From positions 1 to 55,537 of the forward strand of contig CAZWMG010000012.1 in NCBI GenBank assembly GCA_964634945.1: DNA of 55,537 bases, in the 5' to 3' direction. Of this stretch, positions 20,301 to 42,893 are shown one piece after another. How positions within the stretch are numbered: position 1 is the stretch's first letter; each line of letters begins with the position of its first letter. Under the pieces are notes generated by a model that was not told the DNA's origin, did not search any database, and worked only from the letters and a program-made list of their open reading frames with translations. The DNA comes from an uncultured Planctomycetia bacterium (GTDB taxonomy: Bacteria; Omnitrophota; Gorgyraeia; JABMRG01). Position numbers and translations under genes: made by a program.

Positions 20301-20334
20301 TTATTTATCCTCTTATGAAACTTAAGCAAATATA

Positions 20335-20925
20335 GAAGCAGGCGCTTATAAGCCGAGTTCTGTTAGTGACTCACAAGTTAGGCAACCCTTATAAATAATA
20401 AGTACCCTAACTTGCATGCCGGAATTAATACTTAAGGACGCGATAAATAAGAGCGTCCAGTGTATCCACTCCTTCGTCACCAGATGGCCATCTATCTAGC
20501 CCTGTCATTACTGACAGGGTCGTCTTCCTACTTAAAGGAAAGTAGCGACCTAACCCGCTCCGCTTACTGAGGAACGGATCATTCCTATGGCGGAGCCTAT
20601 TTGGTCTTGCACCACGTAGAGATTGCCGCGTTTCACATCACGATTAAATGCATCTGTAATATAAGAGAGATTGAGCCGCTAGGCTCATATGCTCCCATGG
20701 TAGAAACATTTATCGATACTCGTCTCTGTGGCTCTCATTTTCCCGTTTCACTACGAGAAAATGGCCTCAGGCGATAAAATTATCGCAAGAGACAATCCTC
20801 ATGAATTATTCCAAATTCATGGACGGGCATTACCCGCTACGTTATCCTATGGAGCCCGGACTTTCCTCCCCCATAGTTTTACTTCGTAAAGCTTAACATG
20901 GGGGCAGCCATCAAGCGCCTGCTTC
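20335..20925 (-). ncRNA. rnpB: RNase P RNA, unusually long (591 nt)
   Basis: P1 GAAGCAGGCGCTT...AAGCGCCTGCTTC, GAGGAAAGTCCGGGCTC, GCCACAGAGACGA, GCAAGACCAAATAGG, AGATAGATGGCCATC and ACAGAACTCGGCTTA. Confidence 0.95.
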
Positions 20926-22252: not shown

Positions 22253-22313
22253 CCTGCCTGCCGGCAGGCAAGGATCTAAACACTAGATTCTTCGGCTTAC
22301 GCCTCAGAATGAC
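22253..22313. repeat. CCTGCCTGCCGGCAGGCA palindrome abutting a REP-like arm (AGATTCTTCGGCTTACGCCTCAGAATGAC)
   Basis: Near-identical to the 20-mer at 28063-28082; the adjacent arm forms the hairpin attct-tc-ggc-ttac-gcc-tc-agaat. Confidence 0.65.
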
Positions 22314-22801: not shown

Positions 22802-25800
22802 TTATTGTTTCTCATCGCCATTGCTGCTAGATTGTATCATGCTTGAATGATGCGTAAGCTTAAGCGCTATATCATCTACTATAGAATAGACACAAGGTAT
22901 TACGATAAGGGTTAAGAGCGTCGCGAATATGATGCCCCAGCATATAGCTAGCGCCATGGGCACCAGAAAGGGATCCTTCCCACCTATGCCATAGGCAACC
23001 GTGGATAAGCCACCTGCTGTTGTAACGGTAGTTAGGATAACCGGCCTTAGCCTTACCTGCCCTGCCCTTATAATAGAGTCATACCTGTTAGAACCTTCTC
23101 TTCTTAATTTGTTTATAAAACTTACCAGTACTATCGAATCATTTACAACGATACCATTAAGCCCGACAATACCCAATATAGCCAAAAATGACATAGGCAC
23201 GCCATGAGCTATAAAGGCTATAACAACACCTATTATGCCAAACGGAATCGCGAGCATAACAATAAAGGGCTGGATCAGTGACCTGAAAAAAGAAGCCAGT
23301 ATCAGATATATAACTAAGAAGGCGTAAAAGAATGCCTTAAGAAGGCTCGCCATCGACTTCATGGATTCCTCCTGCTCTCCGCCATACTTAATGGAATAAC
23401 CAAAATACTTATCTTTTAAATCAGTGAATTTCTCCTGCAGCATCTTATTGATCTTCACCGAGGTTATCTTATCTGTATCAAGATTAGAGGATGCGGTAAC
23501 TACCCGCTTTCCATCCAGATGATGTATGGTTGTCGTACCGGGTACCTTATCTATGCTAGCCACCTTTGTAAGCGGGATAAGCTTTCCATATTTATTTTGT
23601 ATGAATATGCTGTCAAAAACATCGTCCTTATTTGAGACCTCTTTTGAGAACATAATAGTAACATCCGTCTCTTCCTCTGCCTTTACAGGCTTTATCTGTG
23701 TAGCGATAATGCCCTCGAAAACCCCCCTTACTGTTTTTGCTATTCTAACAATCGAAAGGCCGGCAGCCTTTGCTTTATCATGATCAACCTTTATACGTAT
23801 CTCTTCTTTACCCGGCTTATGATCCCATGTTACATCGGTTGTTCCATCAATCGTCTTAAGGTAATCTATATACTCAAAGGCTATCTCATCGAGTGTATCA
23901 AAATCCTCGCCCCTTGCCTTGACCTCAACAGGCTTGCCTACAGGGGGACCCGCCTCAGGCTTATCCAGCCTAAAATCAGTAAAACCTTTAACATCTTTTG
24001 TCTTTTCCCGCAGTTCAGCTATTATCTGATCCGCGCTCCTTTTTCTATCCTGTTCAGGCTTGAGATAAATAGCTATTTGAACAAGATGGCTTGCCTTGCC
24101 GCCAAACGGATCATGGCGATCCTCTTGTATATTACCTACAGAGGTAACGAACGCGTCCATCTCTTTTTCGGAAATCTGTGCAACGATCTCTTCAACAGGC
24201 GCTATAAGCTCATTCGTCTTATCTAACGGCGTACCTATAGGAGCCTCTGCCCTTATGAAAAAATAGTTTATGCCGGCACTTGGAAATAAGACAAATTTTA
24301 ATGGCCCCTTACCGGAGAAAGAAAGCGCTACAACAGCGATAGATAGTATTGCCGCCATAAGAGTGCCTGTAAATACATACCATTTTTTCTTAACCGCGGT
24401 CTCAACTATTTTTGTATAAACAGATACGAGCCTTTTAAACCACGGCATCTCTTTTTTTAATCCCTGAGGCTTACCATCGGCACCTATTTTTACCTTTACA
24501 AAATCCGCCAAATGACTTGGCAGTATGATAAGGGCCTCACCTAATGACGCTATCAACGCTATTATAAGAACCGTGGGAATATTCCTTATAAATTTACCTA
24601 TTATTCCTGTCATAAATAGAAGAGGCGAAAACGCGGCAATAGTAGTAAATACAGCGGCTACTACCGCGCCCATCACATCCTCCGTGCCTTTTATAGCGGC
24701 TTCTCTGGGGGGGAAGCCCTCTTCCATATAACGATAGGCATTCTCCGCAACGATAATACCATCATCTACAAGCATGCCCAGCACTATTATCAATCCAAAC
24801 ATACTCATAAGATTGATAGTAATGCCCATGGCGCTCATTATAATAAATGTGGCAAGAAAGGCTATGGGTATACCCATGATAGTCACTATGGCGACACGAT
24901 ATTGTAAAAAAAGCATCATTATGGCTATAACTATCAGAAAGCTTACCCATCCATTGTTACCTAAAACATTGAGGCGCCTGCGGGCAAAATAAGAATAATC
25001 ATTAACATAAGATATTTTTAATGAATCGGGGCAGTTCTTTAAGAACTCATCACATTTTATCTTAATCGTATCTACTATGCTTAACGCGTCTCCGGACTCC
25101 TTCTTTGTGATCAAGAGATTTATAGAGCGGTCTCCAAATGTCTTATAGATAATATCCTCTTTTTTGAATAAATCCTTTACAACCGCTATATCCTTTATCC
25201 TCAACCAGTTTCCGGCGTCATTTGCCCTTATTATTATATCCTCAACCTCGGAAACGGTAGTAAACTCACCTGTAGTTCTCACGCTATATTCTGTAACATC
25301 TGTGTTAAACTCCCCTGCCGGTATGCTAACATTACGCGCGGCAAGGGCATCTTCAATCTCATCAAATGAGACATAAAACTCTCTGAGCTTATCAGGGTCG
25401 AGGTGAATCTGCACCTCGCGATCCCTGTATCCTGATTTAGTGGCCTTAGCAACTCCTGAAATATCCTCGAGCGTATCTTCTAATGCATCCGCGTAATAGC
25501 GCAGTTTAGATTCATCCATATCGCCTGAAAGTGATACCTCGATAATAGCGTACTGCTTACTATCTATCTCTGTCGTAATAGGATCTTCATATATATCCTT
25601 AGGCAGATCTTTCACCCTATCTACAGCATCTTTTATATCATTTACTACTTTTTTCTTATCTCTCTCATCAGGGTCTATCTCTACTGTTATATAAGACGCG
25701 CCCAAGGCCGAGGCGGAGGTTATCTCATCAATTCCGTCAACCTCCTTAAGCTCTTTCTCTATAGGAACTGTAATAAGTTTTTCTATATCAAGAGGTGTCG

Positions 25801-25960
25801 CGCCCGGATAAGCAGTGCTTATAGAAACCATATCAAAACTTACGTTGGGAAAGACCTCTCTATTCATGCCAAACATTACAAGCAGCCCTATTACAATAAG
25901 CATGGCAGAAACCAAATTAATAAATAATGATTGATTTACGCTAAATTTAGGAAGGCTCAT
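22802..25960 (-). CDS. RND efflux permease (AcrB/CzcA superfamily)
   Basis: 1052 aa; motifs REVFP, YPGA, GMLVDDGII.EN, GIVVNDSIV and RLRPVILTT. Confidence 0.93.
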   Translation of the reverse strand: MSLPKFSVNQSLFINLVSAMLIVIGLLVMFGMNREVFPNVSFDMVSISTAYPGATPLDIEKLITVPIEKELKEVDGIDEITSASALGASYITVEIDPDERDKKKVVNDIKDAVDRVKDLPKDIYEDPITTEIDSKQYAIIEVSLSGDMDESKLRYYADALEDTLEDISGVAKATKSGYRDREVQIHLDPDKLREFYVSFDEIEDALAARNVSIPAGEFNTDVTEYSVRTTGEFTTVSEVEDIIIRANDAGNWLRIKDIAVVKDLFKKEDIIYKTFGDRSINLLITKKESGDALSIVDTIKIKCDEFLKNCPDSLKISYVNDYSYFARRRLNVLGNNGWVSFLIVIAIMMLFLQYRVAIVTIMGIPIAFLATFIIMSAMGITINLMSMFGLIIVLGMLVDDGIIVAENAYRYMEEGFPPREAAIKGTEDVMGAVVAAVFTTIAAFSPLLFMTGIIGKFIRNIPTVLIIALIASLGEALIILPSHLADFVKVKIGADGKPQGLKKEMPWFKRLVSVYTKIVETAVKKKWYVFTGTLMAAILSIAVVALSFSGKGPLKFVLFPSAGINYFFIRAEAPIGTPLDKTNELIAPVEEIVAQISEKEMDAFVTSVGNIQEDRHDPFGGKASHLVQIAIYLKPEQDRKRSADQIIAELREKTKDVKGFTDFRLDKPEAGPPVGKPVEVKARGEDFDTLDEIAFEYIDYLKTIDGTTDVTWDHKPGKEEIRIKVDHDKAKAAGLSIVRIAKTVRGVFEGIIATQIKPVKAEEETDVTIMFSKEVSNKDDVFDSIFIQNKYGKLIPLTKVASIDKVPGTTTIHHLDGKRVVTASSNLDTDKITSVKINKMLQEKFTDLKDKYFGYSIKYGGEQEESMKSMASLLKAFFYAFLVIYLILASFFRSLIQPFIVMLAIPFGIIGVVIAFIAHGVPMSFLAILGIVGLNGIVVNDSIVLVSFINKLRREGSNRYDSIIRAGQVRLRPVILTTVTTAGGLSTVAYGIGGKDPFLVPMALAICWGIIFATLLTLIVIPCVYSIVDDIALKLTHHSSMIQSSSNGDEKQ

Positions 25961-27426
25961 AAACCGGCCTCATCAGTCTTTAATAGATTATTCATCGCTA
26001 CCTTTAAGGTGATTATAGCTGTCTGATAATTGTACATGGACCTTAAATACAAAAGCTCTGCCACAAAAAAGTCATTTTGATAACGCAGGAGCCTATCTGT
26101 ATCAGAACGGCCTCTGTTAAATCTCTGTTCTTCACCTAAATACTTTTTGTGTTCAAGCTCTGCTGCTTTTTTTAAGAGATTTACTGAATTGTACATCCGA
26201 TTCAGATGCACAAACGCGTCATTTACCTCTACAAAAATAACGCACTCTGTCTTTTTCAATGCGACAAGCGCCCTTGCCTTTTCAAGTTCTTTTTGCGAAT
26301 ATTCTGCCCTTGCCTGGCTGTTTTCCAAAGGAAAGCTAAAGACCACTTCCGCTATATATTCGGGCTGGTCCTTGCTCGTTATATCTTTTACAGAATCATT
26401 GAATTGCCGGTCAAGCCCGTTCTTTTTTAAGGTACCTTTTAAATCTATCTGCGGCCACATAGAACTCTTCTTAATCTCCAGGGAAAGGTCCATTGATCTT
26501 ACCCTATTCTTGTCTGCCTTATAATCTCTCCTGTTATTCAGAGCGGTAGTTATAACATCCGAAAATGTAGCGGTAAGCTTGCGATGCTCGAAATCATCGA
26601 CAGGATCTATTAAAACTCCCTTATCCAGGTTTAGTTTAAGCCTCATCAGGTTAAGGGCGCTATTAACCTTATCATTCGCGAACAATACATCATTCTCTTT
26701 CTGGTTAAGATCCGCTTCCACCGCATAGAACTCAGGTAGTTCTACCATGCCTATTTCATGCATCTTTTTATTGGCCGCAAAAAGATCCTTGGTGTTTTCC
26801 AGCATATTTTCCGTAAGCTCCAGATCTTTATAGGCTAAAACGAGATTCCAATAAGCTTCCTGAGAATCCGCTAACTCGGATTCTATCTTATCTAAAGAGA
26901 TATACCCTGTATTTTCTATATTGAGGCCTGTTATCTTTATTGTATTTCTATCTATTATACCTAAAAAGTTTCTTGCTAAAGGTTGCGTAATAGATATCGT
27001 AGCCGCTGATTCGTGGTAAGGGTTTAAGAGGCTGTAAGCCGAATCAGAACTATGACGTAGATGATCTACATCGAGTGAGAGGATAGTACCTGTCGGAAGT
27101 TTTTTGCTTATACCCACTTCTTGGGTAATTGTTGTTGTTCTGCTGGGGGCAAAAACAGACGGGTTATCAAGTCTATCCTCGTCATATTCATAAGAGGCAT
27201 CGAGGCTAGTATCATACACAGACTCTGCCTTGAGAAGGTCTTTTTCGCTAATGCGCTGGTCAAGCCTGTATATCAATATATCAAAGTTGTTCTTAAGCGC
27301 AAGTTTGGTCACCCTGTCTATGCCTAGTTCCATTTTATTTTCATCCTGAGCGCTCAAAGAGCAAACACCACTGCATAAAAAAAATACTAACAAGCATAAA
27401 CAGGTTGTCCGATGTAGTGTTTTCAT
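25957..27426 (-). CDS. TolC-family outer membrane efflux protein
   Basis: Signal peptide, ALKNN, AYWNL, ALNNRRD and WPQIDL repeats typical of OEP proteins. Confidence 0.88.
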   Translation of the reverse strand: MKTLHRTTCLCLLVFFLCSGVCSLSAQDENKMELGIDRVTKLALKNNFDILIYRLDQRISEKDLLKAESVYDTSLDASYEYDEDRLDNPSVFAPSRTTTITQEVGISKKLPTGTILSLDVDHLRHSSDSAYSLLNPYHESAATISITQPLARNFLGIIDRNTIKITGLNIENTGYISLDKIESELADSQEAYWNLVLAYKDLELTENMLENTKDLFAANKKMHEIGMVELPEFYAVEADLNQKENDVLFANDKVNSALNLMRLKLNLDKGVLIDPVDDFEHRKLTATFSDVITTALNNRRDYKADKNRVRSMDLSLEIKKSSMWPQIDLKGTLKKNGLDRQFNDSVKDITSKDQPEYIAEVVFSFPLENSQARAEYSQKELEKARALVALKKTECVIFVEVNDAFVHLNRMYNSVNLLKKAAELEHKKYLGEEQRFNRGRSDTDRLLRYQNDFFVAELLYLRSMYNYQTAIITLKVAMNNLLKTDEAGL

Positions 27427-27875
27427 TTCTTATCCTTAAGCCCGCTGTAAATCTTCTTGATCAAACCTAAATACAGTCGCTTCTCTTTTTCCGAAAGAAC
27501 CGAAAGTATCTCTCTTATCACAGCTAGGCGATCTTTACTTATTTTTGATACCAGGATCTTTCCATTTCCTGTAAGAGTAATCAATACAATTCTTCTATCC
27601 TCTGCGCAATGGTGCCTTTTTACCAGTTTAAGCTCTACCATCTTATCGATAATAGAAGTCGTCGCGCTCATGGTTAATTTAAGATTTTTAGCAAGCTCTG
27701 ACATATTAGAACTTTTTTTATCATTTAAGAGATTAAGTATAATGTAATGCGATACCGTAAGTTTGCCATCAAGGACTATAGAGTTGAGCTTATCTGCGAA
27801 CTTAGTATGCATGGCAGCCGCAAACCTTGCTATCTCCTTTTCGTAATAACCTTTCTTTATCTTGTCCATATCCAA
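27423..27875 (-). CDS. MarR-family transcriptional regulator
   Basis: MSELAKNL helix-turn-helix, LVKR...EDRR and LT..G. Confidence 0.92.
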   Translation of the reverse strand: MDMDKIKKGYYEKEIARFAAAMHTKFADKLNSIVLDGKLTVSHYIILNLLNDKKSSNMSELAKNLKLTMSATTSIIDKMVELKLVKRHHCAEDRRIVLITLTGNGKILVSKISKDRLAVIREILSVLSEKEKRLYLGLIKKIYSGLKDKK

Positions 27876-27898
27876 CCCTATTATATTTTATCTGCTAA

Positions 27899-27959
27899 AT
27901 AGTTTGACAATCGAAATATTTATTAAATGAAATATACACTATTCACGCGCTAAAGTCAA
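27899..27959 (-). promoter_or_regulatory. promoter of marR-tolC-RND with a putative MarR operator
   Basis: TTGACT-17 nt-TATATT; imperfect palindrome atagtttgacaatcgaaatat at 27899-27919 just downstream. Confidence 0.6.
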
Positions 27960-28009
27960 GAAAAAAAATATCGCAATCTCTTGCGCCTTTATTTTTTCTA
28001 TATCAGGGG

Positions 28010-28195
28010 GTTTCGTTGTAATTGAAGCAGGACCTTGTTGATGCGAGCGGGCCCGCCTGCCGCCTGCCTGCCGGTAGGCAGGGCGAGGCAGGCATGGTTC
28101 GATCTGATTCAGTTCTATGCGAGAGCGAGCATCAACGTGGAGTAAAATTTTCACGCCGGGGAAATTTTACGTTCCTGTGCAAATTGCTACGAAAC
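28010..28195 (+). repeat. ~185-nt structured repeat (putative ncRNA or MITE), copy 1
   Basis: Nested helices shared with 31776-31957 showing compensatory changes; carries a 20-bp insertion. Confidence 0.75.
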
Positions 28196-28235
28196 TATCT
28201 TCTAAAATATTGATGCTTGCCTTATTATAGATTAA

Positions 28236-29327
28236 CTAAGTATTTACCCCAGTAATCCAGCCCCCGCCTACTACTTTATTGTTCTTATAAAATACCGCGG
28301 CTTGTCCCGGAGTAGGCGCGTTTTGGGATTTCGCGAAAATAATTTCGCACCTTCTGGATGAAAGGATATTTATGACAGCCCTTGCCTTATCATGCCTGTA
28401 CCTTATCTTTACCATAGCGTTCAGTCTTTTCTGCTTAGGCATTAGCCTTATAGTCCAGTGAAGATTTCCTACATTAACACTTCGCCTTAAGGTAGAATTA
28501 TAATCACCTACAATAATATCTCCTGTTTTATGATTAATATCTGTTACATATATCGGACTACCATAAGCCACCCTTAACCCCCTTCTCTGTCCTATAGTAT
28601 AAAAGCATGTTCCATGATGGCGGCCTAAGGGGTTGCCTGTCTTTTCTCTGATGTATCCCGGCCTTATATCTTTCTTTAAATTCTTTTTTAGGAATCCGGC
28701 CAGGTCATTATCTTTTACAAAACATATCTCCTGTGACTCTTCTCGATAAAATGACTTGAGATTAAGCTGTTTAGCTATCATACGAATATTTTCTTTTTCA
28801 AAATCACCTACAGGCAGTATCAACCTAGAGAGGGTATCCTGATTTAGGCCAAAGAGCACATAAGACTGGTCTTTTTGCTTGTCCTTGCTTGTCTTTATAA
28901 CAAACCTCTCTGCGCTGGGACTGTACCCACATCTCGCATGATGGCCGGTTGAGATATATCGCGCATTAAACTCTTTTGCCTTTTTCAATAGTAGCGGGAA
29001 CTTAACCTTTTCGTTGCAGACAATGCAGGGGTTTGGGGTAAGCCCTCTTTTGTAGCAATCTAAAAACTTTGCAATAACCTTCTCTTTAAATTCTTTTGCG
29101 CAATCTATTACATAATGAGGAATATCGAGTTTTCTACATACCTGTCTGGCATCATTAATAGCGTCAAGAGAACAACAGCTCTTAGCCTGTTCCTTGCCGC
29201 AAACCGATTTTGGCCAGACCTTAAAGGTTATGCCTATTACAGAGTACCCTTTTTTCTTAAGCAGATAAGCGGCAACTGATGAATCAACACCGCCACTCAT
29301 AGCAAGTAATACGGATTTTTTATTCAT
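28236..29327 (-). CDS. mnmA: tRNA 2-thiouridylase MnmA
   Basis: Motifs SGGVDS, TPNPCIVCN, TGHH, KDQSY, ESQEICF, TIGQRRG and PGQ. Confidence 0.96.
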   Translation of the reverse strand: MNKKSVLLAMSGGVDSSVAAYLLKKKGYSVIGITFKVWPKSVCGKEQAKSCCSLDAINDARQVCRKLDIPHYVIDCAKEFKEKVIAKFLDCYKRGLTPNPCIVCNEKVKFPLLLKKAKEFNARYISTGHHARCGYSPSAERFVIKTSKDKQKDQSYVLFGLNQDTLSRLILPVGDFEKENIRMIAKQLNLKSFYREESQEICFVKDNDLAGFLKKNLKKDIRPGYIREKTGNPLGRHHGTCFYTIGQRRGLRVAYGSPIYVTDINHKTGDIIVGDYNSTLRRSVNVGNLHWTIRLMPKQKRLNAMVKIRYRHDKARAVINILSSRRCEIIFAKSQNAPTPGQAAVFYKNNKVVGGGWITGVNT

Positions 29328-29336
29328 TATCTAATA

Positions 29337-29365
29337 AGGATAGCATAGGAATATATTTTAGGCAA
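29337..29365 (-). promoter_or_regulatory. putative mnmA promoter
   Basis: TTGCCT-17 nt-TATCCT with extended TG; the ATG is 9 nt downstream. Confidence 0.45.
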
Positions 29366-29434
29366 GAAAAGTTTGTTTTTGAAGGGTAGCTCTTATAAGG
29401 AAAAAACTTATCGAGTTCTGAAAACTCAGGAAAA

Positions 29435-29486
29435 TTTAAGACCGGTTCTCAAGCACAAGTGGTCGTGCTTGAGAACCGGTCTTAAA
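29435..29486. repeat. 52-bp perfect palindrome, copy 2, 5 nt after the hppA stop (may act as a terminator)
   Basis: tttaagaccggttctcaagcac-aagtggtc-gtgcttgagaaccggtcttaaa: 22-bp perfect stem. Confidence 0.85.
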
Positions 29487-29491
29487 GATAT

Positions 29492-31588
29492 TTATTTTAT
29501 AAAGGTGTTAGCCATAACAAATGCCGCAAATACGACAGAGACCATTGACATAAGTTTGATTAGGATATTCAATGATGGGCCAGCGGTATCCTTGAATGGA
29601 TCGCCTACTGTATCACCTACTACACCTGCCTTATGAGCAAAAGAACCCTTGCCTCCATGCGCACCCTCTTCTATATATTTCTTAGCATTGTCCCAGACTC
29701 CGCCTGTATTTGCCATCATGACAGCAAAGACAAAACCCGAAACTAGCCCTCCAACCAAAAGGCCTACCACAGCCTCCAGCCCCGCAAAAATACCGACTAG
29801 TATAGGGGCAAGTAACGCAAGAAGCGATGGTAAGATCATCTCCTTCTGCGCGGCTGAGGTCGCTATATCAACGCATGTCGTATAATCAGCTTTCTCTGTT
29901 CCATCCATAAGGCCTTTTATCTCTTTAAATTGACGTCGCACCTCAACAACTATCTTACTTGCCGCACGGCCTACTGCCTGAAGCAGCATTGAACTAAAAA
30001 GAAACGGAAGCATGCCACCTATAAACAGACCTGTCAAAAGGCGTGGATTTAATAATGAGAGATCAAGTTCCTGGCCTAAAAGGTGTATCTGGTCCTTATA
30101 CGCAACTATAAGGGCCAATGCTGTCAATGCCGCGGAACCGATAGCAAAGCCTTTGCCGGTCGCGGCAGTTGTATTACCAAGTGAATCCAATGCATCAGTT
30201 CGCTTTCTTACTTCAGGATCCAAGCCTGCCATCTCCGCGTTTCCTCCGGCATTATCCGCTACAGGTCCGTATGCATCTGTCGCTAATGTAATGCCCAAGG
30301 TTGAAAGCATGCCAACAGCTGCTATGCCCACACCGTAAAGGCCCGCGTTAAAATTAGATGCGCCTCCTGATAAATAAAATGACGCCAATATCGCAGCGCA
30401 AACCGACATAACAGGGACAGCTGTTGAGAGCATGCCAACAGACATGCCCGCAATAACAGCGGTAGCAGGGCCTGTCTCCGCGCTCTCCGCTACCAGTTTC
30501 GTCGGCTTATAGCGTGCGGATGTGTAGTATTCCGTTGAAAATCCTATTATTATGCCACAAAAAAGCCCCGCAAGCACAGAATAATATACGCCTATATACT
30601 CCATGCCTAAGCTATATTTTATAATGAAAAAGCTTGATACGGCAACAAGCGCTGCCGCTACAATTACGCCTTTTCGCAGAGCCTTTAAAAGAGTTCCTTG
30701 CGTAGCGTCCTCTTTGCATTTTACAAAAAACGTACCTATAATGGAGCATATCACACCTGTTCCTGCCATAATCATTGGGACCTTAACCCCATTCATCCCT
30801 AATCCCGCTGCCGCGCCCAGAGCCGCTGTAGCGACCATTGACCCAACATAGGACTCATAGAGATCAGCCCCCATGCCTGCTACGTCCCCGACATTATCCC
30901 CTACATTATCAGCAATAACAGCAGGATTGCGCGGGTCATCTTCAGGAATACCTATCTCAACCTTGCCTACAAGATCAGCTCCTACATCCGCGGCCTTTGT
31001 AAAAATGCCTCCGCCTACCCTTGCGAATAATGCCTGCGCACTCGCGCCAAGCTCAAATGTAAGCATAGTGCTCGTAATAGCGAGAACTTTATCAAAACCT
31101 ATTGGTATTGGATGAGTTGAATAAAACCAATCGAGTATAAAAAACCATACCGTCAGGTCAAGCAGGCCAAGCCCAACAACAGTAAGGCCCATAACAGTGC
31201 CTGAGTCAAAGGCTATGCGTAACCCGCCATTTAAACTTTCTCTACATGCGTTAGCTGTACGTGCAGACGCGCTAGTGGCTATGTTCATACCGATATAACC
31301 TGAAAGGCCCGAGAAAAACCCCCCTGTTATAAAAGCAAACGGAACAAACATAACAAGATAGCCGCGGAAGGCAAGATAGAGCAGGATAAAAAATACCACT
31401 ATAAAGAATATGCCAACTACGGAATACTGTCTTCTCATATAAGCCTGAGCGCCTTCTCTGACCGCCTGGGCTATCTCCTTCATCCTATCGGTGCCCTCAT
31501 CTTTCTTAAGTATCTTAAAACTTAAGACCCCCGAAAAGATAAGCGCTATTAATGAACTTATTGGCGCGATAAAAAACAAGGCCTGCAT
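29492..31588 (-). CDS. hppA: membrane-integral pyrophosphatase, K+-dependent, probably Na+(/H+)-pumping
   Basis: Motifs [32 protein letters not shown] (Ala = K+-dependent) and [10 protein letters not shown]. Confidence 0.95.
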
Positions 31589-31667
31589 TATGTTACTCCC
31601 TTCTATTTTAGTAAGATGTGATTGATTATAACTTTACTGCAATTTTTAATCGTTATTAATTTTAAAG

Positions 31668-31696
31668 ATTATATGCTATATGCCTAAAATATTCAA
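31668..31696 (-). promoter_or_regulatory. putative hppA promoter
   Basis: TTGAAT-17 nt-TATAAT. Confidence 0.6.
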
Positions 31697-31775
31697 GCAC
31701 TAATTTAAACAATCTCTTAATCAACAAAGCTTATGATCAAGTGCCTCTGGCTGCTTGTTAAAAGCTGTCCTGAAA

Positions 31776-31957
31776 GTCAGCTTTTGAGTGATTGAGCAGA
31801 ACCTCTTTATTGCGAACGGGCCCGCCTGCCGGCGAGGCAGGCATGGACCACTGCAGTTTTACTTCGTTAAACTGCAGTGGGAGTGAGCAATAAAACGGAG
31901 CAAAATTTTCTCGCAGGGAAAAATTTTGCGTTTCTGCGAAATTACTCAAAAGTTGGC
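31776..31957 (+). repeat. ~182-nt structured repeat, copy 2
   Basis: 18-bp closing helix gtcagcttttgagtgatt / aattactcaaaagttggc (three G-U pairs on the + strand) and inner helices shared with copy 1. Confidence 0.75.
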
Positions 31958-31994
31958 ATTAGGTAACGTTTAGATGTGAGCCAGCTGGAAATGC

Positions 31995-32945
31995 TTAATT
32001 TAAATCATGTGTTATTATATCAATATCCTGATAAATATCTTCTAATTTAGATATAATATCCGTTCCGCCGACAGCAACTGCGGTAGCTATCGCGTCCGCT
32101 ACAAGGCATCGTTTCGCAACTACTGTCGTAGATGAAAATACGGATTCCACGGGGTAGCCTGTCTTCGGATGCAATAAATGCGTATAATCTTTGTTCTTAT
32201 AAACAAAGTATTGCTCATAGCCTCCCGATGTCGCTACCGCGGAATTAGAGAGCCTCAATATCTCCAGCATATCCCCCTTTTTGCGTGGATCTCGTATACC
32301 TACTCTCCATAAAAATAAAAGATCCTTCTTGCCAAGGCAAAAAAGATCACCCCCTGCGTTGACCAACGCAGACCTGAAACCAGAGCCCTTTATGGCTACT
32401 ATGGCCTTGTCAACGGCATAGCCTTTAGCAATAGCTGAGAGATCAATCTTCATGCCTTCTTTTGTAAAAGATACTGTTTGATTGGGCTGATTTAAAACAA
32501 TCTTATCAGAGCCTACATAATCTAGAGTCTTTTGGATAATCTCTTTCTCCGGTACTGCGTCTCTATCCCAGTAGGGCCTCCATAACTCAACAAGCGGCGC
32601 GACAGTAACATCAAACGCGCCATCACTGGCATCATATAATGCCTTAGAATCTTTTATCAGCAAGAAAAGGTCATTACTTACAACTACCGGTGACTTGTAA
32701 GCAGTTCTATTTAATATGCTTACTTCACTCTCCTCATTGTATATGTTTGCTATATTATCAATATGATCTATGGCAGAAAACGCCTTATCAAAAACAAGGT
32801 CAAAATCATGCCATCTAAAACCAAAAAGGCTAATGCTGACAAAGGTACCCATCTTATATTCCGTACGTTCCCGCTGATCAGTTAATAACGAAAAAGTGAC
32901 GGCCAAAACAATGATTATTATAACTGCGTATAAAAGAAATTTCAT
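31995..32945 (-). CDS. apbE: FAD:protein FMN transferase ApbE
   Basis: Motifs MGT, GAFDVTV, DLSAIAKGYAVD, NAGGD, ATSGGYE, HPKTG and DAIAT. Confidence 0.93.
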   Translation of the reverse strand: MKFLLYAVIIIIVLAVTFSLLTDQRERTEYKMGTFVSISLFGFRWHDFDLVFDKAFSAIDHIDNIANIYNEESEVSILNRTAYKSPVVVSNDLFLLIKDSKALYDASDGAFDVTVAPLVELWRPYWDRDAVPEKEIIQKTLDYVGSDKIVLNQPNQTVSFTKEGMKIDLSAIAKGYAVDKAIVAIKGSGFRSALVNAGGDLFCLGKKDLLFLWRVGIRDPRKKGDMLEILRLSNSAVATSGGYEQYFVYKNKDYTHLLHPKTGYPVESVFSSTTVVAKRCLVADAIATAVAVGGTDIISKLEDIYQDIDIITHDLN

Positions 32946-41285: not shown

Positions 41286-42893
41286 TTAAAACAGCCCTTT
41301 GATCTTGCCATGCCTGTCAGCTGTAATATTACATGCCGCGGGTTTCTTAGGTAGGCCCGGTAAAAGAAGTATATTCCCACATACAGGCACGATAAAACCT
41401 GCGCCTGAGAATATTCTTATCTTATGTATATTTAATCTCCAACCTTTTGGGGCACCCTTCAATAAACGGTTATCGGATACAGAAAATTGCGTCTTCGCTA
41501 TATTAACAGCTAGCCTATTGAATCCAAGCCCTTCTATCACTCTAAGGTCTTTCTTTGCCTGTAAGCTATAATTGACCCCCTTTGCGCCATATATTCTTGT
41601 AGCGATAATCTCTATCTTTTTCCTTGCGCTCAGCCCTTCCTCGTAAAGAGGCTTAAACCTGGATTCATTCTTTTTAAGTATGCGCATACAGCCCTCTGCC
41701 AGGTCAATTGCTCCATAACCTCCTTTGGCCACAGCGTCTGATGTATAACTATCCACTCCGAGTTCTTGGCAGCAAACCTTAATCTTTTTAAGCGATTTAT
41801 CCGTATCACCAGGAAATTTATTTATCGCAACTACAGGCTCTATTCCAAAACACCTTATTATATTTATATGTTTGGCTAGATTAGCTATACCATGCAATTT
41901 TATTGCTCTCTGAGAAACAACTATGACCGCTAGTTCCGGCTTTAATTTTCCTTGACGACATACGATATCAAAAAATTTCTCCGCGCCAAGATCGGAACCA
42001 AAACCACTTTCTGTAATCACGTAATCAGCCAGTTTTAACCCCATCAACATAGACATAATGCTGTTGGCGCCATGCGCGATATTCGCGAAAGGCCCGCAAT
42101 GGACAAAAGCGGGATTACCTTCTATTGTCTGGACAAGATTAGGCATAATGGAATTGGCTAAAAGCGCACTCATAGAGCCAACCGCGTTTAAGGTCTTAGG
42201 CGTAACAGGCTTATTCTTCTTTGTAAAAGCGATTGTCATACGAGAAAGCCTGTTTTGCAGATCTGCTATGCCTTTGCTCAAAGCGAGGATGGCCATTGCT
42301 TCAGATGCGGCGATAATATCAAAGCCGCTTTTATAAGAAGTTTTTTTATTAATATTAAAATTTATCTGTCGAAGGGTTCTGTCGCTTATATCTATGGTCC
42401 GCCTCAATTGTATATTGCTTGTATCTATATTATACTTGTTACCAAAATAAATACTGCTATCAAGCATAGCGCAAAGCAGATTATTCGCACCGGATACCGC
42501 GTAGCCATCACCGGTAAAATGTAGGTTTATATCCTCGATAGGTATTACCTGGGAATAACCTCCGCCACATGCGCCGCCTTTTATGCCGAACATAGGCCCA
42601 AGAGAAGGCTCACGTAAACAAAGAAAGGCTTTTTTCTTCAATCTTCCAAACCCCTGCGCCAGGCCTATAGCGGTAGATGTTTTACCTTCACCATATTTTG
42701 TAGGCGTTATAGAGGTAACAAGTATAAGTTTTCCATTGGGTTTGCTTTTTAATCTTGAAAGAAGCGAGGGAGATACCTTGGCTATGTGGTTACCGTAAGG
42801 CATGAGCTCATCATTTTTTATACCGGCAGATTTTGCTATCTCGGTTATCTGCTTCGGCTTTACGCGCTGAGCTATCTCTATGTCGGAAGGCAT
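41286..42893 (-). CDS. fhs: formate--tetrahydrofolate ligase
   Basis: Motifs SDIEIAQ, GEGKTS, LREPSLGP, INLHFTGD, GPFANIAHG, GAEKFFDI, AKTQFS and PGLP. Confidence 0.95.
   Translation of the reverse strand: MPSDIEIAQRVKPKQITEIAKSAGIKNDELMPYGNHIAKVSPSLLSRLKSKPNGKLILVTSITPTKYGEGKTSTAIGLAQGFGRLKKKAFLCLREPSLGPMFGIKGGACGGGYSQVIPIEDINLHFTGDGYAVSGANNLLCAMLDSSIYFGNKYNIDTSNIQLRRTIDISDRTLRQINFNINKKTSYKSGFDIIAASEAMAILALSKGIADLQNRLSRMTIAFTKKNKPVTPKTLNAVGSMSALLANSIMPNLVQTIEGNPAFVHCGPFANIAHGANSIMSMLMGLKLADYVITESGFGSDLGAEKFFDIVCRQGKLKPELAVIVVSQRAIKLHGIANLAKHINIIRCFGIEPVVAINKFPGDTDKSLKKIKVCCQELGVDSYTSDAVAKGGYGAIDLAEGCMRILKKNESRFKPLYEEGLSARKKIEIIATRIYGAKGVNYSLQAKKDLRVIEGLGFNRLAVNIAKTQFSVSDNRLLKGAPKGWRLNIHKIRIFSGAGFIVPVCGNILLLPGLPKKPAACNITADRHGKIKGLF

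Follow-up and report, generated by a model that had tools for sequence, protein, structure and literature searches.

Introduction

REP, BIME and REPIN sequences are dispersed, gene-less intergenic repeats that lie just after genes and fold as single strands. REPs are hairpins of about 20–40 nt, and in REP and REPIN systems two types form inverted doublets. The element described here shares with them the dispersed, gene-less intergenic location just after genes, the single-strand folding and the doublets (six pairs, each of type I with type II), and its genome also holds RAYT-like Y1 genes. It is different, however, in that it spans 130–220 nt with five helices and a junction, has a core conserved across phyla and flanks no Y1 gene. 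Bacterial MITEs, for example Correia, ERIC and RUP, are a second point of reference. Like them, the element is small, non-coding, multi-copy and intergenic, its ends pair, and its presence or absence differs between relatives. In contrast to MITEs, it is conserved least in its terminal helix P1 and most in its internal core, and this genome contains neither a DDE transposase (DDE_Tnp_1 and rve were searched) nor a parent IS. Its subfamily flanks show no shared direct repeat that would mark a target duplication, and the empty sites are too diverged to reveal one.

The attC sites of integrons conserve structure over sequence, one strand folds and is the active strand, and they are situated just after genes, all of which is reminiscent of the element. 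In sedentary integrons the active attC strand is on the leading-strand template, which is the orientation of the folding strand here as well. The element, in contrast, neighbours syntenic housekeeping genes rather than cassettes, has a conserved internal core and shows by eye no R'/R'' core sites. IS200/IS605 elements and PATEs are again single-stranded, strand-specific and HUH-dependent, lack classical inverted ends and have an orientation tied to replication. In IS608 it is the lagging-strand template, i.e. the G-rich strand, that carries the active strand; the orientation of our element would be the opposite if its folding strand is the active one. Furthermore, it forms one closed multi-helix fold with paired ends instead of two separate subterminal hairpins, its subfamily alignments show no conserved flanking tetranucleotide, and TnpB was found in only one of the 41 genomes searched, which is not this one.

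Finally, orphan RNAs such as HEARO, ROOL and raiA resemble the element in that bases of junctions and loops are conserved, helices vary and covary, and the distribution is wide and patchy. It departs from them in having no Rfam match, about 40 copies per 1.8 Mb and a clear turnover between species. Relation to an omega or bridge RNA is opposed by zero TnpB and IS110 matches in this genome, and relation to a retron or group II intron by the location of the sole RVT_1 gene on contig C8, which carries no copy.

Results and Discussion

The window, by which we mean the whole stretch of 55,537 nt that was analysed, holds two copies of the element, A and B, both on the + strand. Copy A (28008–28197) belongs to type I, subfamily Ib, and is matched by our covariance model R1 with 150.8 bits (E 1.4e-36). 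Its closing helix P1 consists of the 5' strand 28010–28023 and the 3' strand 28182–28195. In P2, GCAGGA at 28027–28032 pairs and covaries with tcctgt at 28173–28178; the CC that follows (feature 28027–28034) pairs with GG at 28139–28140, thereby giving a three-way junction, and covaries as well. P3 is built from gttgatgc-GA-gc (28037–28048) and gc-GA-gcatcaac (28125–28136) and contains the tandem G.A, whose 5' part at 28045–28046 is followed by a 2-bp GC extension. The conserved junction bases G-GGC ... AUGGUU (28049–28099) are interrupted by an optional GC-rich palindromic insert or hairpin at about 28053–28093. Next come the variable P4 region (28100–28123), in which the P4 base pairs covary, and the P5 hairpin (28142–28170), whose loop reads ACGCCGG where the family consensus is NCGCUGG. 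Copy B (31774–31959), also of type I (R1 114 bits, E 5.1e-27), possesses a long P4 hairpin and the GC-rich insert.

A sequence-only reading of the window had named helices for both copies and had described compensatory differences in copy B (31776–31957); helices and differences were indeed found at those positions. Its statement that the element is present twice is correct within the window, but not as a family size, which is about 37–41 copies in the 1.78-Mb genome. Similarly, the hairpin gcccgcct..aggcaggc is found in both copies as it had noted, but is not part of the core since it occurs in only 11 of 34 aligned copies. This GC-rich palindrome is missing from the other 23 and also occurs outside elements elsewhere in the genome.

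Copy A folds with a minimum free energy of −89.2 kcal/mol (z = −5.95) and copy B with −90.0 kcal/mol (z = −9.45), and in either case none of 200 shuffled sequences folded as well. The opposite strands reach −63.8 and −74.4 kcal/mol. Both copies are antisense to their flanking genes, as had been proposed: the marR-like gene, mnmA, the H+-PPase gene and ApbE are all on the − strand. Each is bordered by a stop codon on one side and, on the other, by a promoter predicted on the − strand (27959–27931 and 31696–31668). Outside the element, a small hairpin with T-runs on both sides (27972–27985, no strand assigned), resembling a bidirectional terminator, sits between the 5' end of copy A and the marR-like promoter, so that copy A lies between the mnmA stop codon and this hairpin.

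The covariance-model search that had been suggested was performed and gave many further copies with strong covariation. In the whole genome, nhmmer detected 41 matches, 37 of them at E < 1e-15, and R1 detected 39. Six head-to-head pairs are present, with 5' ends 14–51 nt apart in five and 254 nt apart in the sixth. Many such pairs were also seen in genomes G001, G003 and G008, and two in Desulfaltia-labelled loci. A composite two-part unit was considered and rejected: the spacers of the six pairs are not homologous, and the pairs are consequently not copies of one two-part element.

The element does not correspond to an Rfam family, in agreement with the sequence-only reading: at gathering thresholds the window yields only RNase P and a tRNA. 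When 27880–32100 was searched against Rfam 15 at E <= 10, nothing fell on the copies except a 19-bit match to a phage thermoregulator, which we regard as chance and which falls inside P5 of copy B. A search with 20 diverse homologues at E <= 1 gave nothing on the elements. Our full-text literature searches, as well as a term search in an Omnitrophota genomics paper (PMC10066038), returned no description of such a repeat; RNAs were annotated with Rfam 14.5 in that paper, and the term search did not turn up the words repeat, palindrome or intergenic.

All copies have in common a long P1, P2, the three-way junction, P3 with its symmetric tandem G.A, a P4 that varies, and P5 capped by a conserved CGCUGG loop, together with a conserved asymmetric loop in which GGGCAYGGUU faces AGA. 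P1 forms a terminal inverted repeat of 10–28 pairs (median 22) and differs between subfamilies, being less conserved than any other part, while conservation is highest in the internal core. The idea that structure and not sequence is conserved had to be given up, because the junction and loop bases GAGCGGGCAYGG, AGAGCGA, GGAG and CGCUGG are nearly invariant across phyla.

We aligned 34 copies with MAFFT from sequence alone. RNAalifold predicts 27 pairs on this alignment, 21 of which show compensatory changes; 96.0% of the cells pair versus 79.3% after shuffling and 40–55% in slid controls, and double changes number 169 versus 54. For 98 sequences from several phyla, 93.6% of the cells pair versus 68.7% in shuffles, the double changes rise to 598 versus 163, and 25 of the 27 pairs are compensatory. 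The controls behind these figures are shuffles and slides. Next to the G.A of P3, GC/AU swaps occur in 12 and CG/UA swaps in 11 of the 34 copies, and all seven pairs of P5 show compensatory changes. The column pairs with the highest mutual information are the helices themselves, and the scan revealed nested helices only, with no pseudoknots. Of 38 three-base hairpin caps in the central region, 28 have the form C-(G/A)NA-G, GNRA and UUCG tetraloops not being prominent there. This form is that of the very stable DNA mini-hairpins, which hints at folding as DNA.

The folding is strongly strand-dependent. Under RNA parameters the element strand is the more stable one in 36 of 37 copies, by −10.7 kcal/mol on average, and under DNA parameters in 34 of 37. 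It also contains 217 G.U pairs compared to 102 on the other strand, which bears out the G-U bias reported initially for the + strand. Since the folding strand is itself G-rich (GC skew +0.14) yet placed on the locally C-rich strand, this G.U excess runs against the local composition. Among unpaired copies, the folding strand coincides with the C-rich strand in 22 of 25 cases in this genome, in 19 of 26 in G001, G003 and G008 together, and in 10 of 10 in G013, hence in 51 of 61 over all genomes counted. Gene orientation and replication strand are confounded in these numbers; only two informative copies separate them, and both follow the skew.

The flanking genes are unrelated housekeeping genes, syntenic in relatives that have no element, and the copies sit a median of a few tens of bases behind the stop codon of the upstream gene. 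As most copies are antisense, it is the reverse complement that ends up in the 3' untranslated region of that gene's mRNA. This raises the question of whether the repeat is a cis-acting element of host transcripts, i.e. a 3' UTR stabiliser, terminator, Rho site or insulator comparable to enterobacterial REP/BIME. Its location shortly after stop codons, with copy A between the mnmA stop and a terminator-like hairpin, fits such a role, and the reverse complements of copies A and B, which would be C-rich, still fold with the energies given above. Selection is seen, however, on the other strand in 36 of 37 copies, while on the mRNA strand G.U turns into C.A and G.A into U.C. T-runs follow the outermost pair in just three of 33 copies on the element strand and six of 33 on the opposite strand, and in other phyla the orientation of the flanking genes (upstream/downstream, relative to the element) is mixed: −/+ 20, −/− 14, +/+ 9 and +/− 8. 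We consider a cis-acting role improbable. In some subfamilies, A and U runs form part of P1.

Copies A and B turn over between species. In three congeners the sequence to the left and right of A and of B can be aligned, and the gap in between is shorter by about the length of the element. R1 has no matches at the A and B sites in G001 and G003, for which the match lists are complete, and none on the two contigs concerned in G002 among the 11 of 13 matches listed. In none of the seven nearest metagenome loci is there a copy within the up to 5 kb available on each side of mnmA. With coding identity of about 88% between the species, this presence and absence could in part reflect loss rather than gain. 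The empty sites (three congeners, four metagenome loci) are too diverged beside the element to show its exact ends, a target motif or a target duplication, and the flank alignments of the subfamilies contain no common target motif or flanking direct repeat. Contigs from four DNA runs did not join across an empty site; the joints obtained came only from paralogous copies or other organisms.

G002 retains a short hairpin whose stem matches, by eye, P3 of copy B, and this hairpin is possibly a deletion remnant. Such a hairpin-mediated deletion would suit passive DNA palindromes, in which templated quasi-palindrome correction at replication keeps the helices and the single strand has no function. 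The behaviour of P1 would suit them too: between copies about 90% identical, outer pairs vary and yet stay complementary (for example GGCAG/CTGCC versus GAGAA/TTCTT), a pattern that point mutation followed by selection would hardly produce. Nevertheless, correction of this kind leaves unexplained the strand asymmetry, the near-invariant unpaired bases across phyla and the covariation in P2 and P3, long-range helices with 80–150 nt between their arms. We judge this explanation to be very improbable.

The family is widespread. This genome and three congeners have 12–39 copies each, and R1 is positive in 22 of 41 relatives of the class and in 49 of 151 genomes of a phylum sample. A scan with an exact pattern gave at least 121 loci across phyla; the 80 listed are labelled 'Eubacteriales' (18), Aminicenantes (16), Omnitrophota (15), 'Planctomycet*' (10), Krumholzibacteriales (4), Desulfaltia (3) and others (14). 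R1 confirmed 44 of 48 tested pattern loci at E <= 1e-5. A viral origin was discarded, as the sole pattern match on a viral contig is not recognised by R1 and falls within GC-rich sequence that is densely open.

The sequence-only reading had proposed either a structured ncRNA missing from the annotation or a mobile element folding as a single strand, and the lacking Rfam match, the covariation, the G.U bias and the presence or absence at orthologous sites are in agreement with this. We favour, with a probability of roughly one half, a mobile repeat that is non-coding and non-autonomous, folds in single-stranded form and is copied in trans. Its lifestyle would be similar to that of REP/REPIN or MITE sequences, but its fold is much more elaborate than theirs and conserved much more widely. 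One specific strand of each copy forms P1, in which any sequence is allowed provided that the two arms pair, together with P2, the junction, P3, P4 and P5. The folded core would then be recognised by a trans-acting factor during copying into new intergenic positions. Inserted copies would persist mainly with the strongly folding strand on the C-rich strand, i.e. the leading-strand template, where this strand is expected to be rarely single-stranded and is also antisense to most genes. We infer that the folded form acts in mobilisation, perhaps as ssDNA, which we favour only slightly over RNA, and the orientation bias would represent a survivor effect.

Such a mobile repeat would need an enzyme in trans. 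The transposase-type genes of this genome are six Y1_Tnp, one RVT_1 and four tyrosine recombinase genes, while TnpB, IS110, DDE_Tnp_1, rve and a multi-copy IS are absent. Among the families searched, the Y1/HUH transposase-like proteins are the only transposases proper in this genome, and one of them may be the enzyme. The expectation that copies might flank an HUH gene was disappointed: none do, and the six Y1/HUH genes carry their own, unrelated inverted repeats. The single Y1 gene of G013 is likewise flanked by repeats other than the element, and R1 with its filters off found nothing near six Y1 loci from other genomes (best E 0.19). A regular expression for the GGGAC..GTCCC motif of the Y1 flanks gave no matches, and no transposase is encoded among 129 flank ORFs. 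Y1 does not track the element either, being present in 19 of 22 genomes with it and in 17 of 19 without. Thus, the mobile reading has against it that no enzyme is tied to the element and that six Y1 genes are unflanked by it, and also that its orientation is the reverse of the textbook HUH case. A hairpin target at the 5' end was also rejected, the 5' flanks of 17 unpaired copies folding with a mean of −7.4 kcal/mol, no better than the controls (3' flanks −5.8, random 70-mers −11.1 kcal/mol).

IS110, TnpB, RVT_1, DDE_Tnp_1 and rve were dismissed as the enzyme, each being absent here or not tracking the element. The same data bear on a detached guide or retroelement RNA, such as a TnpB/IscB omega RNA, an IS110 bridge RNA, a retron ncRNA or an intron fragment. 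Eight of the 41 relatives have an IS110 transposase and all eight also carry the element, one copy of which is located about 390 nt upstream of an IS110 gene, the two being on opposite strands. But two other IS110 loci have no copy nearby, and this genome and the three congeners maintain their 12–39 copies with no IS110. TnpB is restricted to one of 41 genomes, and RVT_1 to nine of 22 carriers and three of 19 non-carriers, so that 13 of the 22 carriers show no RVT_1 match. Furthermore, conservation is found in the loops and variation in the stems, whereas a programmable guide would show the converse. For this genome such a descent is already largely refuted, and we give it next to no credence.

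It is also conceivable that the product is an RNA. The + strand would be transcribed into a structured small RNA, about 170 nt long and encoded in many copies, that acts as a ribozyme, RNP component, decoy or regulator, with mobility being secondary or the RNA taking part in its own spread. A compact three-way junction, a tandem G.A, junction and loop bases nearly invariant across phyla, and covariation in all helices argue for this, as do the G.U pairs that favour one strand against the local composition; a three-way junction whose unpaired bases stay nearly invariant across phyla is indeed more typical of functional RNAs than of known DNA repeats and speaks against the mobile reading. The antisense bias could be explained by selection against an active RNA inside operons, and in most of the seven copies of subfamily Ia a TAnAAT-like box is situated about 6 nt before P1. 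On the other hand, no promoter was predicted before A or B, and 57 anchored copies gave no positional peak of −10-like hexamers, in both cases for the sigma-70 consensus only, and the terminator-like hairpin is just upstream of A. The short distances between head-to-head 5' ends, with unrelated spacers, the absence of an Rfam ribozyme or riboswitch match, and dozens of diverged copies per small genome, which is unusual for a trans-acting RNA, are further arguments against it. Altogether we regard the small RNA as a possibility with the odds against it. A coding role was rejected: a long open frame is found in 26 of 37 copies, but any anchored frame is stop-free in at most five of 37.

A bolder variant is a new cross-phylum structured RNA of about 170 nt, with a closed three-way junction, a symmetric tandem G.A and an invariant CGCUGG loop, that is itself the unit of spread, ribozyme- or RNP-based and with no protein gene of its own. 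This seems unlikely to us; if true, it would be present in dozens of copies in streamlined Omnitrophota and also in Aminicenantes-, Planctomycetota- and Desulfobacterota-labelled genomes.

If the mobile reading holds, the repeat represents an undescribed family of structured nucleic-acid elements, which makes up about 0.3–0.4% of a 1.78-Mb genome, is present in a third of the phylum sample and keeps its core across poorly known phyla. It would be a clean case for studying the copying of an intricately folded element that has no genes. The family raises the questions of why the folding strand is kept off the strand exposed in single-stranded form at replication, and whether bacterial mobile elements use a multi-helix junction as a recognition module, beyond a hairpin or inverted repeat. 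If it is an RNA instead, it adds one more large orphan motif awaiting a function. In either case the repeat is a ready marker for strain-level variation. Copies are also found at contig ends, showing that the repeat breaks assemblies.

Results and Discussion

The two stretches at 28008-28197(+) (copy A) and 31774-31959(+) (copy B) indeed read as the sequence-only reading had stated them, with 77% identical columns in a pairwise alignment. On the + strand they fold with minimum free energies (MFE) of -89.2 kcal/mol (copy A, z -5.95) and -90.0 kcal/mol (copy B, z -9.45), and 0/200 shuffles were as good for either copy; the - strands reach -63.8 and -74.4 kcal/mol. The genes around both copies all lie on the - strand, as claimed: the RND efflux pump, outer-membrane factor and MarR-type regulator genes (22802-27875), mnmA (28236-29327), the H+-pyrophosphatase gene (29492-31588) and the ApbE gene (31995-32945). 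The sole Rfam matches in the window are the RNase P RNA and one tRNA, and no credible match at E <= 10 was found on copy A or copy B, in agreement with the view that the element is not an Rfam family. The RNase P RNA itself (20333-20923, -; class A, 119 bits) measures 591 nt against a 367-position model; several large insertions, each some 60-90 nt long, sit in its P3, its P12 and near its 3' end.

Searching the window's own genome (G000; 1.78 Mb, 31 contigs, 97.6% complete) with copy A by BLAST gave 72 matches. Iterated nhmmer converged on 41 hits, 37 of them at E < 1e-15, and R1, a covariance model built from 34 copies (alignment A2), matches 39. The element is thus present twice in the window only, not in the genome. 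It falls into two types. Type I, to which copies A and B both belong, reads GCGAGCGGGC ... GAGCGAGC around the tandem G.A and has an A/U-rich P5 helix; type II reads GCGAAUGGCAUGG ... AAUGAGC at the same place, with P5 as GAGnAAACC...GGUUU. Some long open frame exists in many copies without anchoring to the core, and no core-anchored frame is stop-free in more than 5/37 copies; the element does not code for protein.

The compensatory changes reported for the two copies hold when more copies are added. RNAalifold predicted 27 pairs from A2, which was aligned by MAFFT from sequence only, and 21 of these 27 show compensatory change; in A4, 98 sequences from several phyla aligned to R1, the figure is 25/27. 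Paired cells amount to 96.0% in A2 (79.3% when shuffled) and 93.6% in A4 (68.7%), observed values that 0/500 shuffles reach in either alignment, and double-change cells number 169 against 54 shuffled (A2) and 598 against 163 (A4), where the A4 counts lean towards structure because this alignment was fitted to the model. Slid controls paired only 40-55% (A2) and 35-61% (A4) of cells. The top mutual-information pairs include the first three pairs of the variable helix P4 and the closing helix P1, with no pseudoknot among them. P1 is 10-28 pairs long (median 22), and its sequence varies by subfamily, e.g. AAAAUCUAAG..., CAAACUACGG... and CCACACRC.... The idea that structure and not sequence is conserved therefore survives in its first half only, since GAGCGGGCAYGG, AGAGCGA, GGAG, CGCUGG and GCGU are near-invariant, all of them unpaired or at junctions. 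The element family is real and strongly supported; as far as full-text literature searches and Rfam 15 show, it is also undescribed.

By R1, the element occurs in 22/41 relatives, among them 9/11 of the same family and 4/4 of the sister family, with 1 to 39 copies per genome, and under stricter filters in 49/151 genomes sampled across the phylum. Matching an exact pattern of the type I core against a species-representative genome collection yielded at least 121 loci. By the depositors' unverified labels, the 80 loci listed comprise Aminicenantes 16, Omnitrophota 15, "uncultured Eubacteriales" 18, "Planctomycet*" 10, Krumholzibacteriales 4, Desulfaltia 3 and others 14. R1 recognized 44 of the 48 pattern loci submitted to it, at E <= 1e-5. 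The best-scoring named R1 records are labelled Omnitrophota, which probably places G000 in this phylum as well. In Aminicenantes-type copies only the central domain matches by sequence, with the same overall architecture, and 20 diverse homologues had no match in Rfam. The one pattern match among 2.9 million viral contigs was a chance match.

Copies A and B are absent from the orthologous sites in congeners, which supports the mobile-element part of the sequence-only reading. Three congeners (G001-G003) align on both sides of the two copies, with gaps shorter by about the length of the element. The complete R1 match lists for G001 and G003 contain nothing at these sites; for G002 there is none on the two relevant contigs among the 11 of 13 matches listed. 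At site B, G003 carries an unrelated hairpin (C15:98170-98330; 161 nt with an MFE of -75.6 kcal/mol and a stem some 38 bp long), showing that one intergenic site hosts different structured inserts across species. G002 has a short hairpin there with a stem that by eye corresponds to P3 of copy B, possibly a deletion remnant of the element. In the seven closest metagenome loci (MnmA 62-92% identical), R1 found no match in sequence extending at most 5 kb to each side of mnmA, and three of these loci align across site B with a gap 193 nt shorter. The absences at sites A and B in relatives thus point to gain and loss of copies on the time scale that separates species of about 88% coding identity.

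The folding strand is clearly preferred. The element strand is the more stable one in 36/37 copies under RNA parameters (mean difference -10.7 kcal/mol) and in 34/37 under DNA parameters (-38.4 versus -34.3 kcal/mol), and the proposed G-U bias is confirmed by 217/2304 G.U pairs on this strand compared to 102/2118 on the opposite one. The element strand is G-rich (skew +0.14) in DNA that is C-rich on the same strand, so mutation pressure would be expected to yield the opposite asymmetry. In G000, 25/37 copies are antisense to the flanking genes, 6/37 are sense and 6/37 lie between genes of differing orientation; the folding strand lies on the C-rich strand in 28/37. Twelve copies form six head-to-head pairs with unrelated spacers, the 5' ends being separated by 14-51 nt in five of them and by 254 nt in the sixth. 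Every pair joins a type I to a type II copy, and in 6/6 it is the type I copy that sits on the C-rich strand. Such pairs are common in G001, G003 and another carrier, G008, and present in two Desulfaltia-labelled loci. Among unpaired copies the folding strand is on the C-rich strand in 22/25 (G000), 19/26 (G001, G003 and G008) and 10/10 (the single contig of the carrier G013), overall 51/61. Gene orientation and skew are confounded; the two copies in which they can be told apart both follow skew. G000 has an unusually strong GC skew (+-0.11 to 0.19 over 20-kb windows), which gene orientation tracks closely. In other phyla the orientation to genes is mixed, with divergent intergenic regions in excess, and the 129 flanking ORF fragments of 80 loci belong to unrelated housekeeping genes, with no transposase among them.

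Could the element be a new functional RNA class instead of a mobile repeat? Conservation across phyla of the junction architecture and of invariant unpaired bases argues for this, and a TAnAAT-like box lies about 6 nt before P1 in subfamily Ia. No + strand sigma-70 promoter was predicted before copy A or copy B, no positional peak of -10-like hexamers appeared across 57 anchored copies, and promoters of the downstream genes are predicted beyond the 5' ends of both copies. A bidirectional terminator-like hairpin is predicted just upstream of copy A (27972-27985). These promoter scans speak weakly against an independent sRNA gene. We regard a new RNA class as the less likely reading, though one with a real chance of being right.

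As the active form we favor single-stranded DNA, if only slightly. The orientation is linked to the replication strand, a promoter is not detectable, and G000 also harbors six HUH genes along with several further families of hairpin repeats. Additionally, 28 of 38 three-base loops capping the variable hairpin are C-GAA-G (15), C-AAA-G (7), C-GCA-G (5) or C-GTA-G (1), which we take to be DNA mini-hairpins of the exceptionally stable class; GNRA and UUCG tetraloops do not stand out there. In IS608 the active strand lies on the lagging-strand template. The element is oriented opposite to this rule and in the same way as the attC sites of sedentary integrons, and we therefore read the bias as a probable survivor effect: excision or deletion would more often remove those copies that expose their strongly folding strand on the lagging-strand template. 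The possible deletion remnant in G002 would fit this reading.

The mobilizing enzyme was sought in seven families, and none was identified among them. G000 contains six Y1_Tnp (HUH), four tyrosine recombinase and one RVT_1 genes, no TnpB, IS110, DDE_Tnp_1 or rve, and no multi-copy IS. The suggested check for copies flanking HUH genes was negative: each Y1 gene bears its own unrelated flanking repeats, and R1 found no match beside the Y1 genes of six other genomes. The RAYT-like Y1 genes of G000 (C26:417-746, C4:109887-110216, C11:7268-7594, C2:171695-172030, C1:131534-131875 and C8:19416-19742) are diverged (211-307 aa), and several of them lie between short inverted repeats of the AATAGGGACAG...CTGTCCCTATT type. 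Y1 occurs in 19/22 carriers versus 17/19 non-carriers, RVT_1 in 9/22 versus 3/19 and IS110 in 8/22 versus 0/19. The genomes richest in copies lack IS110, and just a single IS110 gene is located close to a copy. In lifestyle the element resembles REP/REPIN or MITE sequences; the defining tests of each named family testable here came out negative. We place it among the dispersed, single-strand-folding, non-autonomous bacterial repeats. The 1.3-kb duplicate C5:31305-32605/C5:46951-48251 (99.8% identity) encodes EF-Tu (two tuf copies), and the other large repeats of G000 are surface-protein genes, not insertion sequences. Direct repeats some 120 nt long, 80% identical and containing a CAGGGACACTGTCCTG palindrome, stand on either side of the copy at C11:20573-20734 (region C11:20400-20880).

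The gcccgcct..aggcaggc hairpin, taken before as a shared part of the element, turned out to be an optional GC-rich palindrome (CCGCCUGCC...GGCAGG) that splits the conserved GGGC^AUGG loop in 11/34 aligned copies (A2). It is also found alone and within other repeat families, with 56 regular-expression matches in the genome, and is therefore a separate module outside the core. In the window it lies at 22253-22268, 28063-28082 and 31825-31841 (CCTGCC..GGCAGG, often CCTGCCTGCCGGCAGGCAGG). It forms the tip of several distinct hairpin repeat families and takes an identical loop position in type I and type II copies. All this suggests a tiny insertion module aimed at hairpin loops. A hairpin at 29437-29484, between the H+-pyrophosphatase stop and the mnmA start, has a near-perfect 20-bp stem (TAAGACCGGTTCTCAAGCAC...) and a T-run on the - strand, and seems to represent a further repeat family; in a related sequence on C10 (about 42740-42800) the loop contains the GC-rich palindrome.
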